Shown: one piece after another, positions 8,942 to 61,300 of the stretch | Layout: each line of letters begins with the position of its first letter | Position numbering within the stretch: position 1 is the stretch's first letter | From: an uncultured Methanomassiliicoccales archaeon | GTDB taxonomy: Archaea > Thermoplasmatota > Thermoplasmata > Methanomassiliicoccales > UBA472 | DNA: 64,000 nt | Reading direction: 5' to 3' | NCBI GenBank assembly: GCA_942492955.1 | Contig: OW818644.1 | Span: 770,327-834,326 of the forward strand | The notes under the pieces: model-generated | Told to the model about the DNA's origin: nothing | What the model saw: only the letters and a program-made list of their open reading frames with translations | Database searches by the model: none | Translations under genes and position numbers: made by a program

Positions 8942-9512
8942 TGGGATCGACCGATATCTTGGGGAGGTCAAATCGACCTTGGACAATCTCGATCGCGAAG
9001 ATCTGGAAAGGTTCGCCGATGCGCTCATGAAGGCGTACTCGGAAGGGAACCAGATATTCGTCTTCGGGAATGGCGGCAGCGGTTCCACGGCCTCCCATTT
9101 CTGCGGAGATTTCCTGAAAGGAGTATCATACGGTTTGGAAAAGAGGTTCCGGTTCCTCTGCCTGAACGACAACATCCCTGCTTTACTGGCCATCGCCAAC
9201 GATATCAGTTACGAGGATGTCTTCGTGGAGCAATTGAAGAATCACATGCGCAAGGACGACCTGGTGATCGGGATCTCCGGCAGCGGTAACTCGATGAACG
9301 TGGTCAAGGCGCTGCAGTACGCCAACGACAACGGCGCGGTCACCGTGGCCATGTGCGGCTTTGACGGGGGCAGGATCATCGGCATGGCTGACATCCATAT
9401 ACACGCCCGGATAACGAACATGGAGGTCACCGAGGACGTGCACCTGATCGCCATTCACTGCCTAAAAACGATTTTGAAGGAAAGACTTCAGAACCAGCAG
9501 ATTCAGTGCTGA
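8925..9512 (+). CDS. gmhA: phosphoheptose isomerase (SIS domain), GmhA-like
   Basis: SIS-domain motifs FVFGNGGSGSTASHFCGDF and ISGSGNS. Overlaps the hddA-like gene by 17 nt (alternative ATG at 8931). Confidence 0.85.
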   Translation: MSMKADGIDRYLGEVKSTLDNLDREDLERFADALMKAYSEGNQIFVFGNGGSGSTASHFCGDFLKGVSYGLEKRFRFLCLNDNIPALLAIANDISYEDVFVEQLKNHMRKDDLVIGISGSGNSMNVVKALQYANDNGAVTVAMCGFDGGRIIGMADIHIHARITNMEVTEDVHLIAIHCLKTILKERLQNQQIQC

Positions 9513-9540
9513 ACGATAACAATCCATAGGAGACACAAAC

Positions 9541-10488
9541 TTGAAGATCATAGTGACCGGCGGCGCTGGGTTCATTGGTAGCCATCTATGCGATGCGTTG
9601 TTAGAGAAAGGGCATGAGGTCCTCTGCGTAGACGATCTGAGCCTCGGTTCAGAGGAGAACATCAGACATCTCCTAGGGAACAAGGATTTCCACTTTTACC
9701 GGATGGACGTCACGAAGGGGAACGAATTCTCTAACCTGATGAGGGACAAGCAGATAGGGTGCGTCTTCCACCTGGCGGCCAACTCCGACATCCAGCAAGG
9801 AGCGGCCAACCCGTCTATAGACCTGGAACGCACGTTCATGACAACTTACAAGGTCCTGGAGGCAATGAGGCTGAACGGCGTGCGAGACCTGGTGTTCTCC
9901 TCCACTTCTGCCATATACGGCGAGAAGGACAGGGCTATCTCCGAGGACGAGGGTCCACTGCAGCCCATATCACTGTACGGGGCGGCCAAGCTTTGCTCCG
10001 AATCCTATATTTCGGCCTATTGCCACAACTTCGGGATCAAGGCCTGGATATGCCGGTTCCCTAACGTAGTGGGTGACCGGAGCACGCACGGCGTGATATA
10101 TGACTTCGTCAAGAAGCTGAACAAGGACCCGAGCCGGCTCGAGATCTTGGGCAACGGCAAGCAGCACAAGCCCTACATCTACGTCAAGGATCTGGTCTCC
10201 GGCATCCTCTTCTGCTGGGAAAACTCCGGGGAAACGCTGAACGTCTACAACCTCGGGGTGGACTCAGAAACGACGGTCACGGAAATAGCCGAGATAGTGG
10301 TGGACGAGATGGGGCTCAAGGACATCGATTTCGTCTACACTGGAGGGGACAGGGGCTGGAAGGGCGACGTACCGTATTTCGCGTATGACCTGAATAAGGT
10401 GCATGCCCTCGGATGGTCGGCGTCGAGGACCTCGAACGAAGCGGTGCGTCACTCGGTCCGGATGTTCCTGGCAAATCGCAAGAAGTGA
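9541..10488 (+). CDS. NAD-dependent nucleotide-sugar epimerase/dehydratase (extended SDR)
   Basis: Rossmann motif [26 protein letters not shown] and catalytic YGAAK (YxxxK). TTG start behind a GGAG element. Confidence 0.85.
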   Translation: MKIIVTGGAGFIGSHLCDALLEKGHEVLCVDDLSLGSEENIRHLLGNKDFHFYRMDVTKGNEFSNLMRDKQIGCVFHLAANSDIQQGAANPSIDLERTFMTTYKVLEAMRLNGVRDLVFSSTSAIYGEKDRAISEDEGPLQPISLYGAAKLCSESYISAYCHNFGIKAWICRFPNVVGDRSTHGVIYDFVKKLNKDPSRLEILGNGKQHKPYIYVKDLVSGILFCWENSGETLNVYNLGVDSETTVTEIAEIVVDEMGLKDIDFVYTGGDRGWKGDVPYFAYDLNKVHALGWSASRTSNEAVRHSVRMFLANRKK

Positions 10489-54275: not shown

Positions 54276-54980
54276 TCAGATCATCTCCGATCCGGCGTGC
54301 ACGACGATGCCCTTGTTGGTGATCTCGTAGGGAGTGATCTTCCTGGAGTGCGTGGTCCGCCTCATCTTGATTATGCGCAAGGACAGCTGCATCTCGCTCC
54401 TCTCGACCCGGTCCACGTAGCGAAGGGAGATCACGCCGTCGGCCACGTATTCGACCAGTCCGTCCCTCGATGCCAACGGGTTGTCGTCCCTGGTCTCCGC
54501 GGTCATCAGGCAGGTGGCGTTCGTCCTCTTGATCATCTGGGACAGGTTGAAGAGGTTGATCCTGCGCTCATGCTCGTCCACGAACAGCATGTTCAGCAGC
54601 GAGACCGAATCGAACACGATGCGGGTCGCCCCGAACTTCGAGATGAAATCGGGCAGTTCGCTCTTGATCCTGGATATCGTGGTCTTAGCGTCGCTAGGCT
54701 CCAGCTTCACGATCACCATCTTCTGTGCGTCGATCATAGGTTTGAGGTCCCAGCCATGCGACTTGGCATCCTCTATGATCGAGTTCTGGTCCTCTTCCAG
54801 CGAGATGTAGATCACTTTCTCCCCGTTCGCCAATCCTTGATTGAGGAACTGCAGTCCGAACGTCGTCTTCCCCGTACCGAACGATCCCATGACCACGAAC
54901 GTGTGCGACTTCGGGACACCGCCCTCTAGGAGCTCGTCCAGTCCGTCAATTCCGGTCTTAACTCGGTCCATGTTGCTCAC
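54276..54980 (-). CDS. KaiC-like / RecA-superfamily ATPase (single domain)
   Basis: Canonical Walker A VVMGSFGTGKTTFGLQF and Walker B RIVFDSVS. N-terminal TGIDGLDELLEGGVP is typical of the KaiC/RadA-like family. GTGA overlap with the upstream gene (alternative ATG at 54971). Confidence 0.85.
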   Translation of the reverse strand: MSNMDRVKTGIDGLDELLEGGVPKSHTFVVMGSFGTGKTTFGLQFLNQGLANGEKVIYISLEEDQNSIIEDAKSHGWDLKPMIDAQKMVIVKLEPSDAKTTISRIKSELPDFISKFGATRIVFDSVSLLNMLFVDEHERRINLFNLSQMIKRTNATCLMTAETRDDNPLASRDGLVEYVADGVISLRYVDRVERSEMQLSLRIIKMRRTTHSRKITPYEITNKGIVVHAGSEMI

Positions 54981-55822
54981 CCAATCCTTTCTGTGTCGAT
55001 GACCACTAGGCCGCTCTGGGCGGTGACCATGGTCGCGAACCTAGCAATGCGCTCCCTGTCCAAGTGCGGCAGGATGCTCATGAACTTCTCCACGTACAGA
55101 TAGCGCTGCCTCTTGGAGGAGGAGACGAAACGGCTCCATTCGAAGACCAATGCACCATCCACCGAATCCATGATCATACGCTGGAGCCTCTCGTCGATGA
55201 TATCCTTGGTAAGAAGCAGGTAAACCACTCCGCCCCACTTCTTGCTCACCCTCTGCATGCCGCGAAGCACCGCCACCAGGTCCCTTGGGTCGATCTTCTG
55301 GTTCAGCACCAGGTCGGTCAGGGAGTCGATGATCACCATGCTCTTCGGGGCGTTCTCATCGAGATAGTTGACAAGACCTTCAAGCACGCCCTCTTCGTCG
55401 CTCACGTTGGAGAACAGGGCGGACGAAGTATCACCGGACCAGCTCTTTGGCACCAGGGTCTGCCTGAAGTATTTCGAGGAAAAGTCCTTGAAGATCACGT
55501 TCTTTTCGAACGATTCATAGAAGTCCAGATTGAAGGACATCTCGATCTCCTGGAGTATGTCCTCCTTGGACCTTGAGAATGTGATGTAATGTATCGATTC
55601 CGGCATCATCCGCCCCTTGACGCTGTGACCGAGGAAGAACTCGGCGGAATCGGGATTCTCTTTGATAAGCGATATCTTAGCCGCCGAGGTCAACGCATAT
55701 TCCTGCTGGCCTGCCCCTAGATCACCCAGAAGGAGGACCACAGAACCAACGGGCATGCCTCCCCTGATGATACTGTCAAAATCAGCCACTCCCGTAGGAA
55801 TCCGTTTCACTGGTGCATCCAT
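54977..55822 (-). CDS. KaiC-like ATPase paralog with degenerate P-loop
   Basis: TGVADFDSIIRGGMPVGSVVLLLGDLGAGQQEYAL has the KaiC-like N-terminus, but GAGQQ replaces GxGK[ST]. Walker B-like MVIIDSLTDL is retained. Confidence 0.7.
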   Translation of the reverse strand: MDAPVKRIPTGVADFDSIIRGGMPVGSVVLLLGDLGAGQQEYALTSAAKISLIKENPDSAEFFLGHSVKGRMMPESIHYITFSRSKEDILQEIEMSFNLDFYESFEKNVIFKDFSSKYFRQTLVPKSWSGDTSSALFSNVSDEEGVLEGLVNYLDENAPKSMVIIDSLTDLVLNQKIDPRDLVAVLRGMQRVSKKWGGVVYLLLTKDIIDERLQRMIMDSVDGALVFEWSRFVSSSKRQRYLYVEKFMSILPHLDRERIARFATMVTAQSGLVVIDTERIG

Positions 55823-55902: not shown

Positions 55903-56370
55903 TCATTTCAGCGCCCTGATGATGAGTTCGATGAGATAGTCTGACGCTAACCTTTTCACGACCGTCCTATCACCTTCGAAGAGCATCCTCTCCGCCCATA
56001 TTTTATCGCCGTCATCAATGGCAAAGTATACCAGGCCGACCGGCTTCCCCGGCCTCTCGCCGCCAGGGCCAGCGATCCCTGTGACGGAAACCCCTATGCT
56101 GGTATGGAACCTGTTCCTGACCCCGGCGGCCATCTCCAACGCGCACTGCTCGCTCACCGCGCCTTGATAGGTGATGGTTCCTTCCTTTACCCCTAGCATC
56201 TCGACCTTCGAGCGATCACTATAACAAACGACAGCGCCTAGAAAATAATCGGACGAACCTGGCACGTTGGTGATCAGATCGCTCGCCAGACCGCCGGTGC
56301 ACGACTCTGCCAGGGAAACGGTCGCACCCTTGGACCTAGCTATCTTCCCCAATTCCACTTCCAGAGTCAT
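55903..56370 (-). CDS. CinA C-terminal domain protein / nicotinamide-nucleotide amidohydrolase (PncC-like)
   Basis: TVSLAESCTGGLASDLITNVPGSSDYF and GVSVTGIAGPGG are CinA-C hallmarks. Confidence 0.85.
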   Translation of the reverse strand: MTLEVELGKIARSKGATVSLAESCTGGLASDLITNVPGSSDYFLGAVVCYSDRSKVEMLGVKEGTITYQGAVSEQCALEMAAGVRNRFHTSIGVSVTGIAGPGGERPGKPVGLVYFAIDDGDKIWAERMLFEGDRTVVKRLASDYLIELIIRALK

Positions 56371-56911
56371 CTTCCATCTTCCTCCTTAGATTCGGGGTCA
56401 GGTCCCTGATGCGGTTGATGCCGTCGATATCATCGATCACCTTGACCACGGCCGGCGGTACCAGGTCCTTCCATTCCGCCCCCATCGACATCCTGCGCCT
56501 GATCTCCGTCCCGGAGTAGATCTCCCGGTTGAACATGGGAGAATCGTGGATCTCATATCGCGCCTCGGAGAACAGCCTCCTGGTCAGACTGTTGTTGGTG
56601 AAGACCACCTCGAAAGGCGGCACCATGGAGACCACATGAGAGACCCAAACGGCATAGCGGTTTATGTCCACGATCGGGACCAGGAAATACTCCTTCAGTC
56701 CCTCGTCCTTGAGAGCGCGGGAGATCATCAGATGCCTCTCACCGGCGGTAAAGGGATTCTCATAGGTGTGGGAATACTGGGCGCTGCCGATTCCGATTAT
56801 CAGCGAATCGCATTTCTTGGCGATGGATCGCACAACCTCCAGGTGACCCTTATGGAAAGGCTGGAAACGCCCAATCAGCAGGCAGTTCGAGAAATGCTCC
56901 GGTACGTCCAT
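56336..56911 (-). CDS. nadM: nicotinamide-nucleotide adenylyltransferase, archaeal type
   Basis: LLIGRFQPFHKGHLEVV (the (H/T)xGH nucleotidyltransferase motif as in archaeal NMNAT) and a later SGTEIRRRM motif. The 3' end overlaps the cinA-like gene by 35 nt. Confidence 0.9.
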   Translation of the reverse strand: MDVPEHFSNCLLIGRFQPFHKGHLEVVRSIAKKCDSLIIGIGSAQYSHTYENPFTAGERHLMISRALKDEGLKEYFLVPIVDINRYAVWVSHVVSMVPPFEVVFTNNSLTRRLFSEARYEIHDSPMFNREIYSGTEIRRRMSMGAEWKDLVPPAVVKVIDDIDGINRIRDLTPNLRRKMEDDSGSGIGEDS

Positions 56912-57288: not shown

Positions 57289-57496
57289 TATTTCCACTCC
57301 CCTATGGGAAGCCGACCCTCGTATCCTCGTCCCGCTATTTCAGCTCGTTCTACTTTAAAGAACTTGCCAGAGATGCCTACCGCCGAGATATAGGGACTCG
57401 TTTGTCTTTCCGTCCGGGCCGACCTGAAGCATAGGTCGTGCCAGCGTACACGAAGCAGTTGAACAGAGTTATGACGGTTCTCGCGAGAGGCCTGGA

Positions 57497-58360
57497 TCAC
57501 TCCTCGACGATCACCGGTTCGAAGACAACTCTCTTGATGTTGTGTCTCGAGAACAGCTGATACACCTTGTGGCTCACGATCCGCTCTGGACGAGCATCAT
57601 ACAGACCGAGCCATTCCGAGGTCTCGTTGAAATCCTTAGCGTCCCTCAGGGACTGCCTCCCGTACCTGATGGGAACGGCCACACCATAGATTGGATCCAA
57701 CGCTCGGTTTCGGCCGAACTTGCCGCACGTGCATCGTTTTGGGCCCGCTTCGGGCAGCTTTGCATCGACTATCTCCGTGGTCGGGGACATAGGGGGCAGG
57801 GTGTTAACGATATGGAGCTGGCTATAACCTGGGACCAGCATGTTCTTCTTGTACCTGAGCAGGGGCCAGAACTCGGCGCCCGTCAGGCCGGCATCCTCGA
57901 TGAGCTTCCTGAGGCGGTCGGTCACCAGGAACTCGTAGGTCCAGTTCAGGGCCAGGATGTCGTTCCTGCCGAATCTCGGCAAGCCCTTCACCTGGAACGG
58001 TCTGTCCTGGATCGCCCCAAAGCCGCACTTGGGGCAGGCGGTGCCGAGGTCATACGACGCCCTCTGCCATGCGTCCATCTCCTCCTCTGGCTGTGGATAT
58101 CCCCAGTACCCGGCCTGGCTCATACAGAGGAACTCGGCACTGTCCAATTCCTTCACCGTGAACTGCTTTTCTCTCATATCTGTGGGTCTTATTTCCATCC
58201 TTTGCAGTTCGTCCATGAGGCAAGGGTACCTCTCGTCGTCTATGTAGAGGTAGACGATGCCGACTATTTTCTCCTCTACGTCGATCTCCAAAGAATCGAA
58301 AAGGCCCCTTAGCCGATCAAGTTCTTCTGGACGGAAGACTAACCTCGATCTGATTCTCAT
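57497..58360 (-). CDS. putative immunity protein for the upstream Rhs C-terminal toxin (Imm11/double-CXXCG-like C-terminal domain)
   Basis: ATG lies 9 nt after the Rhs TAG stop, behind GGAGGG. The C-terminal ~180 aa carry CPKCG and a second Cys pair (RCTCGKFG). They also carry two segments, FLVTDRLRKLIEDAGLTGAEFWPL and IVSHKVYQLFSRHNIKRVVFEPV, reminiscent of Imm11/DUF1629-type immunity proteins (from memory). Confidence 0.65.
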   Translation of the reverse strand: MRIRSRLVFRPEELDRLRGLFDSLEIDVEEKIVGIVYLYIDDERYPCLMDELQRMEIRPTDMREKQFTVKELDSAEFLCMSQAGYWGYPQPEEEMDAWQRASYDLGTACPKCGFGAIQDRPFQVKGLPRFGRNDILALNWTYEFLVTDRLRKLIEDAGLTGAEFWPLLRYKKNMLVPGYSQLHIVNTLPPMSPTTEIVDAKLPEAGPKRCTCGKFGRNRALDPIYGVAVPIRYGRQSLRDAKDFNETSEWLGLYDARPERIVSHKVYQLFSRHNIKRVVFEPVIVEE

Positions 58361-58369
58361 GGACCCTCC

Positions 58370-61300
58370 CTAGGGAAGATACGGAGATATGGCTCTGAAC
58401 CATTCAGAACCCTCTCCATAGACTCCAGCGTAGATTCCTCTGAGCTGACCTTGAACTTGTTCATCGACATATTTTGAGCCATATGGTAGATGGCCCCTTA
58501 ACATCTGTGTAATTGTATTGTGATCAGCATGCGTCAGAGCCACTGCAGGTACGTCTTTCATACTCTTGAACCCTAGGTTCTTAGCGACCCTCCATTCCAG
58601 GAGCTTGTGCCTCTCCATGCCCTTGGGCAGGGGAATCTTCTGCAGCTCCCCATACGGCATGATTTCGCTTTTGCCAAGATGACCTACTAAATCTGGCGCT
58701 CGAGCAGCATCGTTCATCCGCCTAGATTCCAAGAGGTCCTTAGCCCTTTCAACAGCCTTCTCGCCATCTAAGGCTTTGTCCGCCGCCCTCTCTGCATCGA
58801 ACCCCTTGTCGATGATCTTCCCGACCTTGACCAAGCCCCCGATCGCGGGGAGGAACGGCACGGCGGTGCACACGACATCAACAGCGGTCCATCCCCAGTT
58901 CTCCGGTGTGGGATCGTTCCATAGCTCCACAATGTCCCATGCTAAACATGCGACGTCGAAGATAGTGTCTAAGAACGCACCGGTCGGGTCGGTATGTATC
59001 AGCGGGCTGTTCGCGCAGTACACGTACCGGTTCAGCGTCTGGGGCATGGAAAGGTGTCCGAGTTCGGGATCAAGTGCCATGAATCTGCCGGTGCTCGGGT
59101 CCATGTACCTTGCCGAAAGGTACACCAGACCGGTCGGCGAATCGACGATCTCTCCGGTGTAGGAGAACTTGTCCGTTCCGGCCGGGGAATAGATCTGTCC
59201 GAACGGCTTGTAAGTGACCGCCCATGACATGCAGTCCTGGATGTTCTTGTTGCCGTTGCGGAGCACGAACCGGGTGCTGCCCAGCGCGTCGGAGATGTAG
59301 ACGTAGCTCTCGCCTGCGCTCACGACCCGGAGGTCCAGCCCTCCGCTCAGGTAGATGTCCTTCTGACCACGGCCGTCGCTGGAGTTGAAGTAGATGGGGT
59401 CGTGTCCTGCGTAGATGTACCGGGTGATGGTCCCGGACTCCTCGGTCTTGGCGCGGGCGCCGTTGGCGTCATAGTAGTAACGGGCCACGGTCGTCAGCGC
59501 CCCCCAGCCGCCGGAGTACAGCTGCTTCCTGACCTCGGTCATCTGGCCGAACGCGTTGTAGATGTAGTTGTAGCGGACAGCGGAGGAGTTCTTCCAGAAG
59601 ACGTTGCCGTTGGCATCGTACACGTAGGAGTACGTCCCGTCCAACGTCAGCTTGTTGTACGTGGTGTATGTGGATGAGACGTTCGTGCCCTCGTTCTTCC
59701 AGATACGGTTTCCGACGCTGGAGTAGCCGTACTGGATCGTTCCGAAGGTGGAGTTGGCCATCGCTTTCGTCAGCCGGCCGAGCGAATCGTACCAGTAGTA
59801 CTCGTTCCCGGCCGAGCCGAAGGCGTCCTTGATGCTCGAGACGTCACCATCGGCGGTGAAATCATAGTTCAGGTCGAGGATGGTCACCCCGCTGCTGACG
59901 TTCACCGCCTTGATCTTGCCCACCATCCCGTTCGTCTTGTACGTGTACGTCACCGAACAGTTGGAGTCGCAATACCGCTTCGACGCCACGGAATCGTCCG
60001 GGTTGTAAGTGACGTTGAGGAGGAGGGTGTTCCCCATCTTCACGTCCACCGCCCGGCCATAGCGGTCGTACAGGTACGTTATCCGCCTGGCGTCCGGATA
60101 GTCGACGTAGACCACGTCCCCGACGGCGTTGTACGCGTACGTGAACGTGTAAGTGTTCGGCGAAACCTTCTGCACCGTGCGGTACAGCCGGTCGCGGCTG
60201 TCGTAATGGTAGGAGATGTTCCCCAGGCTGTTGACCTTCTCCGAGACCAGCCCGTCGGCGTTGTACCTCGTACGGATCGTTTCGCCGCCGCCAGTGACCC
60301 GGATGTTGTTGCCGGCGGTGTCGTAGGCGCTGGTGGTGACCTGCCCGGACCTTGATGTGGCGGTGAGGACCCGGCCAGCCTCGTCATAAGCGTAAGATTC
60401 GCTCTTCGCGTCCGGATAGGCGATGGAGGTCTGCCTTCCCAGCGTATCGTACGACATCCTGGTCACCTCCCCGTTGTCCTGCCTTACGGTGACCAGCTGG
60501 CCTACGGCGTTGTAGGCCATCCTGGTGACGTAGAAGGCGGACGCGGTGATGTACTCCCGGGTCTGGTTCAGCCGGCCGAGGTCGTCAAAGACGCTGACGG
60601 TCTTATGGCCCAGCTCGTCCAACGCGGTCACCAGCTTGTTCCTGTCGTCATAGGTCGTGTACGAGATGGTGTTGTCCGGGTTCTTGACCGAGGTGACCCG
60701 GCCCAGGTAATCATAGGTATACGTGACGACCCGGTTCATCTCGTCCGTGGCGGTGGCCACCTGGTCCTGCCAGTTGTAGGTCTTTTTGGTGACCGAATAG
60801 ACAACGCTCCCGGTTCCGTACCGCTCCGCCTTCATCTCCCGGCCGAGCCGGTCGAAAAAGACGACGCTCTTGCGGCGGAGCTCGTCGTAGACGGTGGCCT
60901 TGTTCGCCGAGTCGTCAAACAGCGTATAGGAGTTCGTGTAGTCCGGGTTCTCCTGATAGATGACCCGGCCGATCTCATCATATTGCCAATGACTCGTGTG
61001 TCCAAGGGGATCCGTCGCCGAGGTCACCCAGCTATTCAAGTGGTCATGATCGTAGCTTGACTTCGCCGAGGTCAGATCGTTGAATGTGAGGTCATCCACG
61101 TACATCCGGAATTCATCAATGAAGGCCCATGAACCGTAGGTGTAGATCTCGAAGCGCACCTTGACGCACTGCGACCAATCGATGTTGAAATCGCTGTTCG
61201 GATAGAGGGCCGGGTTTAGCCAGGTGTTGGTGGCGGGTTTCCCCCAGATGCATTTTGTGATCGAGGGGTTGCTGACCGTCTTGTTGTTGGTAGAGCCGCT

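Follow-up and report, generated by a model that had tools for sequence, protein, structure and literature searches.

An Rhs toxin-immunity cassette with an uncurated toxin family in a Methanomassiliicoccales archaeon

The Rhs gene, its toxin tail and the immunity gene

The DNA analysed here, hereafter the window, is a stretch of 64,000 nucleotides (nt) from an uncultured Methanomassiliicoccales archaeon (assembly GCA_942492955.1, contig OW818644.1, positions 770,327 to 834,326), and its minus strand carries a gene for an Rhs/YD-repeat polymorphic toxin with an immunity gene directly behind it. The toxin gene occupies 58370..64000, with 1876 visible codons plus a stop and an N-terminus that lies beyond the window end; the open reading frame (ORF), listed as 58370..63985, stays open up to base 64000 with no stop met. 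A Pfam scan found RHS repeats in five stretches of the ORF (PF05593, E=2e-31), and an NCBIfam scan added matches to TIGR01643 (YD_repeat_2x) and NF041261 (RHS_core). The Rhs-associated core domain (58979..59212, minus strand; residues 1592-1669) was matched by TIGR03696 (E=5.6e-18, 65 bits against a cutoff of 32.5) and ends in ...IHTDPTG, the DPTG motif lying at 58979-58990. DPTG is the expected autoproteolytic boundary of an Rhs core, and the locus has the traits of an Rhs polymorphic toxin: YD/RHS repeats, a core that ends in DPxG and is followed by a variable tail, and an immunity gene directly downstream.

The tail after DPTG comprises 202 amino acids (aa; 58373-58978, minus strand). It had been delimited by an earlier sequence-only reading of this DNA, and the ORF, the RHS repeats and the end of the TIGR03696 match at DPTG confirmed that it is real; its sequence is identical to the one quoted there. 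The proposal that a hydrophobic pre-toxin segment precedes a separate toxin domain was likewise supported. Read from sequence, residues 1-54 of the tail (AFLDTIF...LVKVGK; 58817..58978, minus strand) form a hydrophobic/amphipathic pre-toxin segment, which is followed by a charged linker (residues 55-97; 58688..58816, minus strand) and by the toxin core domain (residues 98-202; 58373..58687, minus strand), a member of an uncurated H-[H/K]-x-x-E-x-R ... H-x-x-x-T family. The key codons of the core, also on the minus strand, are those of H124 (58607-58609), K125 (58604-58606), E128 (58595-58597), R130 (58589-58591) and H153 (58520-58522). No Pfam match to PT-TG was obtained in the pre-toxin segment of the window or of about 8-9 relatives tested, and P0050 is the only one of the relatives that carries PT-TG.

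The cognate immunity gene (57497-58360, minus strand) encodes a 287-aa protein with an N-terminal beta-alpha-beta domain and an Imm11-fold body bearing CPKC ... CTC cysteines. Between the toxin stop TAG and the immunity ATG lies a 9-nt spacer, GGAGGGTCC (58361..58369, minus strand), with a Shine-Dalgarno-like GGAGG, and the spacing is likewise 9 nt in a related locus (L001). Searches that started from the toxin gave the loci L001-L007, which are archaeal and closely related, and L009-L011, and independent searches that started from the immunity partner gave L012-L015; in every locus examined an immunity homolog lies directly downstream of the toxin domain. At three distant bacterial loci (Capnocytophaga, Bacillus and a metagenome scaffold) this homolog matched the immunity hidden Markov model with E values of 2e-14 to 5e-36; conversely, at the four immunity-side loci the toxin domain forms the end of the ORF upstream (E 1e-16 to 9e-30). 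We therefore regard it as nearly certain that the tail and the next gene constitute a conserved toxin-immunity cassette.

The immunity protein of the window scored 12 bits against Pfam Imm11 (PF07791), whose cutoff is 22.1, and 23 of 33 homologs matched the family (best E=6e-7). Its AlphaFold model (predicted local distance difference test score, pLDDT, 92.2) had a single significant match in the PDB, the solution structure of MXAN_0049 (6a4c; E=1.6e-5, probability 1.00, 225 columns), and an hhalign comparison related the immunity family to the double-CXXCG protein pMF1.19 (E=1.4e-4). Thus the 287-aa Imm11-fold protein is most likely the antidote of the toxin; the pairing is conserved, and we infer the binding. 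Unlike MXAN_0049, a prototype of 215 aa, it carries about 90 additional N-terminal residues and falls below the Imm11 cutoff when scored alone. The extra part (residues 1-85 of the protein encoded at 57500-58360, minus strand) has a beta-alpha-beta-beta-alpha-beta arrangement, and its sub-threshold fold matches are PII, ACT and ribosomal S6-like proteins.

A word-indexed protein search returned three close relatives of the tail only: P0001, a 317-aa Rhs C-terminal fragment (86-88% identical), and the short stand-alone proteins P0002 and P0003. When an alignment of the close relatives was then compared by exhaustive HMMER search with 1.84 billion representatives, 279 representative relatives were obtained at E<=1e-3. 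Among the best 151 of these, host proteins range from 62 to 3118 aa, and the domain lies within 15 residues of the C-terminus in 93%. The N-terminal parts of the relatives include Rhs repeats, DUF6531, the TcdB mid-region, FG-GAP, PT-TG and PT-HINT. Polymorphic-toxin tails are typically marked by such a C-terminal position on varied scaffolds. Among the named sources are bacteria (Capnocytophaga, Moheibacter, Bacillus, Paenibacillus, Clostridia, Chloroflexia, Phycisphaerales) and archaea (Methanomethylicaceae, Thermoplasmata and 'Euryarchaeota archaeon RBG_19FT_COMBO_56_21'), and the family extends over Bacteroidota, Bacillota, Chloroflexota, Planctomycetota and several archaeal lineages. A search of GTDB genomes with the toxin alignment found nothing, and tblastn of the family consensus against plasmids gave chance matches only. 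The toxin core belongs, in short, to a widespread C-terminal toxin family without a curated model, and the earlier description of the tail as unclassifiable was not upheld, as it falls into a coherent family of 279 representatives with a fixed immunity partner.

The family is characterised by the signature E-[A/V/R]-H-[H/K]-[LI]-x-E-x-R ... P-[AS]-[VI]-x-L-x(4)-H-x-x-[IF]-T ... Y, with a near-invariant Tyr. Residue conservation was counted over 146 family representatives: the first His (H124) is kept in all 146, E128 and R130 in 144 each, the helix His (H153) in 142 and T157 in 136. The sequence-only reading had singled out ERH and HADHN as candidate catalytic or metal-binding motifs. Both are present, and the His of ERH (H124) and the second His of HADHN (H153) proved to be the conserved ones, whereas H150 and N154 are not conserved. 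In addition, the ratio of nonsynonymous to synonymous substitution rates (dN/dS) was 0.07-0.28 for the toxin core across four diverged copies, among which MERHKL[LI]EWR is invariant, and 0.10-0.20 for the immunity gene, so that both genes are under purifying selection.

The kind of toxin encoded by the core

We consider it probable that the toxin core is a metal-dependent DNase of the His-Me-finger (HNH/EndoVII) type, placed near the AHH, SHH and DUF2380 toxins. Tox-SHH toxins have the HNH/EndoVII fold and are defined by [SG]HH and a later His (PMC3482391); the DNase activity of the Agrobacterium toxin V2c depends on the second His of SHH and on a His that follows 24 residues on in a helix (PMC10902643). 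The SitA6 toxins make up DUF2380; their alleles have been described as AHH nucleases (PMC8546572), and one DUF2380 protein, pMF1.20, has a DNA-cleaving activity in vitro that its neighbour pMF1.19 inhibits (PMC6091211). The domain assignments of both pMF1 proteins were confirmed on the pMF1 sequence.

When 77 family members were scanned singly against 24,736 Pfam models, the families touched by the largest numbers of members were Tox-SHH (5 of 77, best E=0.0091) and DUF2380 (4 of 77, best E=0.0016). Tox-SHH was also the best Pfam match of the family consensus, at E=0.0063 and 17.7 bits, below the cutoff of 22.7. In hhalign comparisons of the window family with DUF2380 (E=0.03-0.07), ERHK stood in register with ERHH and HADH with AEVH; the DUF2380 profile itself is thin, a single locus having come from the metagenome scan for its relatives. 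An AlphaFold model of tail residues 90-202, built with 80 family sequences (pLDDT 90.3; predicted template modelling score, pTM, 0.81), gave the following order: ERHKL as the first strand, a loop that includes a short helix, AVALTH as the second strand, and three further helices, the first of which begins with ADHNTIT. H124 lies in the predicted strand ERHKL and H153 in the first turn of the predicted helix (61-74 of the model), and this strand-strand-helix order fits a metal finger of that topology.

The immunity partner is the strongest indirect evidence on the kind of toxin. MXAN_0049, the Imm11 prototype, binds and neutralises the AHH nuclease MXAN_0050 (PMC12077181), and Tox-AHH, Tox-HNH and Tox-SHH are the published partners of Imm11 (PMC3482391).

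Several results weigh against a His-Me-finger nuclease. Searches with the tail sequence came back empty in Pfam and NCBIfam at E<=1 and in the PDB at E<=10, and comparisons of the toxin with known nuclease families gave nothing significant, the consensus remaining below the Tox-SHH cutoff. Foldseek comparison of the toxin model with the PDB and BFVD returned none at E<=0.001 despite the many HNH structures there; its sub-threshold matches, NucB and HNH/homing endonucleases, with the named viral ones mostly HNH or homing endonucleases, are hints in favour of a nuclease. The expectation that the tail would lack a confident match to a described toxin family thus held in profile, PDB sequence and fold searches. 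At the motif level, the second position of the His pair, catalytic in V2c, is Lys in the window and other than His in 12 of 146 representatives, and the family has neither the Asn nor the second helix His that AHH-type motifs contain. The His-Me-finger assignment, which had been offered as a guess, has nevertheless become the best-supported reading, on the evidence of sub-threshold profiles, a predicted topology and the type of immunity partner, and with no significant fold match.

The core could instead be a toxin of another kind, such as an RNase or other hydrolase, with an H/E/R/H centre and a fold that resembles a His-Me finger only superficially, in which case the Imm11-type partner would mean that an immunity scaffold had been reused, and not that the toxins have a mechanism in common. 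Such a toxin would account for the lack of a significant sequence or fold match to any nuclease, for the family-specific E-x-R (144 of 146) outside the SHH and AHH signatures and for the variability of the canonical general-base position, and the consensus has a weak match to EndoU (E=0.17). However, the two Pfam families touched by the largest numbers of members are both His-Me DNase toxins, the spacing and register of the motifs agree with DUF2380, and the published Imm11 or CXXCG partners are all HNH-type nucleases (PMC3482391, PMC12077181). We judge a toxin of another kind to be unlikely.

Like the window toxin, Tox-SHH (PF15652; Agrobacterium V2c, Pseudomonas Tke4, Txe4) is a C-terminal toxin on Rhs or other polymorphic-toxin scaffolds; it shares with the window family an x-H-H in a strand followed by a helix His some 24-29 residues on, counts Imm11 among its published immunity partners and was the closest curated family of our consensus (PMC3482391; PMC10902643). 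It differs in that the consensus stays below its cutoff and the window tail has no match, and the first motif residue of the window family is A, V or R instead of S or G, so that the [SG]HH motif is missing, with the downstream His present. The window also has H-K for H-H, and near-invariant E-x-R and H-x-x-x-T motifs are peculiar to the family.

In DUF2380/SitA6 toxins (PF09533, TIGR02269), whose immunity proteins are of the double-CXXCG type (PF09535), the ERHH ... H aligned with ERHK ... H of the window, the immunity gene likewise directly follows the toxin gene, and the immunity protein is a clan relative of Imm11, with cysteine motifs in common (PMC12077181). In contrast to DUF2380, the window family has no score above the curated cutoff and no NCBIfam match, its similarity being confined to the E values given above. 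DUF2380 toxins are myxobacterial lipoproteins delivered by outer-membrane exchange, whereas the window toxin is Rhs cargo, and they carry HHIFPQ and a second helix His where the window family has HH-x-x-E-x-R and a Thr.

Tox-AHH (PF14412) resembles the window family in the A-H-H of most members and in the near-invariant Tyr, and the MXAN_0050/MXAN_0049 pair (Tox-AHH with Imm11) has the same toxin-immunity operon layout as the window, whose immunity model matches MXAN_0049. The window family departs from the [AG]HH, N, H, H, Y pattern of Tox-AHH in having neither the Asn nor the second His of the helix, and no AHH model was among the matches listed for the 77 members scanned. The uncurated toxin family is probably a divergent AHH/SHH/DUF2380-like nuclease.

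If the toxin core is a His-Me-finger DNase, its action may be pictured as follows. The Rhs shell would enclose the toxin tail, and an aspartyl autoprotease at DPTG would free it; the hydrophobic pre-toxin segment may then help the tail to enter a neighbouring target cell. There the toxin core (residues ~98-202) would cut DNA using a metal held by H124 and H153, with H124, from the first strand, and H153, from the beginning of the next helix, forming the putative metal/catalytic centre, and with E128 and R130 as candidate additional essential residues. In the producer, the Imm11-fold protein would bind the toxin and block it.

Mobility and composition of the cassette

The toxin-immunity cassette (57471..58978, minus strand) was delimited by blastn homology to orphan modules. 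From 58978 to 57471 the window is 80.5% identical over 1509 nt to L001/L002; the homologous stretch opens with the base that follows the DPTG codons and extends 26 nt beyond the stop codon of the immunity gene. In L001/L002 the module is an orphan: an unrelated 2707-aa Rhs gene, which has its own tail and neighbours, lies about 1.3 kb upstream of it. Comparison of the window with the full-length Rhs protein of L012 gave 46% identity for the Rhs core, 28% for the pre-toxin segment and linker, 76% for the toxin core and 75% for the immunity protein. As identity is high in the toxin core and immunity protein and low in the pre-toxin segment, the moving unit appears to be the toxin core with its immunity gene, sometimes accompanied by the pre-toxin segment. 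Recombination brings the cassette onto different Rhs bodies, and orphan copies of it persist as well; its closest relatives occur in Thermoplasmata-like metagenome-assembled genomes.

Bacterial Rhs loci with orphan modules share with the window a YD shell, a DPxG boundary, a variable tail and an immunity gene next to it, and the homology of their orphan cassettes likewise starts at the core/tail junction. The window differs in its archaeal host, and no type VI secretion system, PAAR or VgrG context is visible in it. The system is thus of an ordinary type (Rhs toxin, immunity gene, orphan cassettes), with an uncurated toxin family, an archaeal host and a variant motif.

Further copies and remnants were observed. 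The contig that encodes P0004, a protein 100% identical to the window immunity protein (2,549,776 bp), carries a second module outside the window, made up of P0001 and a 288-aa immunity paralog (P0260) that is 88% identical; the toxin and immunity parts of this module have diverged in parallel, the former being 86-88% identical to the window's last 317 aa. The orphan cassette of L001/L002 is flanked by two ORFs (L001 9480-9866 and 11324-11578): by eye, the 128-aa ORF resembles a fragment of a helix-turn-helix transposase and the 84-aa ORF the C-terminal end of a tyrosine recombinase, which provides hints as to how the cassette moves. In L007, a 190-aa protein that is Imm11-like by eye (9135-9707) directly follows the 3032-aa main Rhs protein, and a 74-aa remnant of the toxin and an intact immunity gene come after it. 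In L011 (1773-2977), the tail of an Rhs fragment belongs to the toxin family and is split by a frameshift.

The sequence-only reading had noted by eye that the end of the gene is richer in AT than the Rhs body, and computation bore this out: GC content and GC content at third codon positions (GC3) are 0.49 and 0.52 in the last 300 nt of the gene, against 0.60 and 0.86 in the last 300 codons of the Rhs core. The lowest GC3 of any 100 codons in the gene, 0.49, lies in the tail, and the minimum outside the tail is 0.62. In a single-break likelihood test, GC3 switched within the charged linker, at tail residue ~61-68 (codon ~1730-1737), and the break raised the log-likelihood by 41. GC3 amounts to 0.77 in the pre-toxin segment, 0.48 in the linker and 0.74 in the immunity gene, so that the dip is confined to the linker and toxin core. 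The GC of 0.49 is itself unremarkable for the window (mean 0.521; 32nd percentile of 300-nt windows), in which the Rhs body and the immunity gene are the GC3-rich parts.

The same reading suggested that the AT-rich end would fit a laterally exchanged toxin cassette. This was right insofar as the tail does belong to an exchanged cassette (80% nt identity over 1509 nt, present as an orphan module), but the dip is not the boundary of that cassette, and the equation of the two was rejected because the cassette (57471-58978) includes the GC3-rich pre-toxin segment and immunity gene. The GC3 of the toxin core is below that of its neighbours also in L001, L007 and L012, and marginally in L004; with the same dip in three related archaeal loci and marginally in a fourth, it travels with the toxin core and is not the scar of a recent junction in this genome. 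A very recent horizontal gain of the toxin tail alone by the window genome, to which the sharp and highly significant intragenic GC3 break might point, is therefore improbable: the homology-defined cassette extends over parts with GC3 of 0.77 and 0.74, the dip recurs in the related loci, and the GC of 0.49 is close to the window mean of 0.52.

Beyond the cassette, the visible N-terminal part of the Rhs protein (62840-64000, minus strand) contains a tandem duplication of a unit of about 191 aa. The two copies share 141 of 191 aa and 467 of 573 nt, with the first ~140 residues nearly identical, and the window edge apparently cuts the end of yet another copy; the repeat region has a weak match to a Sialidase-like carbohydrate-binding module (E=9.5e-5). 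The full-length Rhs protein of the window was absent from the returns of the protein search, in which the immunity protein and the second-copy fragment of the same contig did appear, and its gene may carry a pseudogene annotation, or the protein may sit in a cluster whose representative has another tail. Downstream of the cassette (54276-55822 and 56336-56911, minus strand) lie two archaeal KaiC-domain genes and an archaeal-type NMN adenylyltransferase gene, with KaiC_arch_3 (TIGR03880, in one of the two) and TIGR01527 (the adenylyltransferase) both above their cutoffs, which marks the window as archaeal. As these are housekeeping genes, no island is obvious around the Rhs locus on that side.

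The H-K variant and its implications

The window and its close relatives read R-H-K where most family members read A-H-H. The second position of the pair is His in 134 of the 146 representatives, Lys in 10, Arg in 1 and Leu in 1, and the Trp of E-W-R occurs only where this position is Lys or Arg (8 of 8 sequences). This covariation of Trp with the change from His to Lys or Arg makes the motif look like a compensated variant and not like decay. In the DUF2380 alignment, Lys125 sits at the second His of the HH pair, where V2c has its catalytic His, and the invariant His of the family is the first of the pair, H124, not the second. The general-base His is regarded as strictly conserved in His-Me-finger nucleases. 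The catalytic roles may have shifted by one position, or the subclade may use a different general base.

It is conceivable, though unlikely, that the H-K/E-W-R subclade has a non-canonical site, with Lys125 or Glu128 as general base, or that the whole family represents a new fold or activity that recruited Imm11-type immunity; either would give Thermoplasmata-like archaea and many bacteria an uncharacterised weapon. That the variant is a catalytically dead or decaying toxin, kept as recombination material or as a binding module, is highly improbable: the Lys does replace a His that is essential in V2c (PMC10902643), and truncated remnants of the clade exist (the 74-aa fragment in L007 and the frameshifted copy in L011), but the four diverged copies are constrained (dN/dS 0.07-0.28) and invariant in MERHKL[LI]EWR, an intact and equally constrained immunity gene is always next, the substitution co-varies with Trp, and the full-length Rhs proteins P0041, P0046 and P0057 have the same variant.

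If confirmed, a shift of the catalytic roles or a different general base in the Lys125 subclade would be the new part of the finding. The subclade offers a natural His-to-Lys variant with a compensating Trp at a position held to be essential in related nucleases. The analysis also defines a toxin-immunity pair that curated databases miss, as neither Pfam (2025) nor NCBIfam (2026) has a model of the toxin, and a model of the family would allow the annotation of many 'hypothetical proteins'. To our knowledge, archaeal Rhs toxins have had no experimental tests to date, and the pair provides a tractable test case for inter-microbial conflict in archaea.

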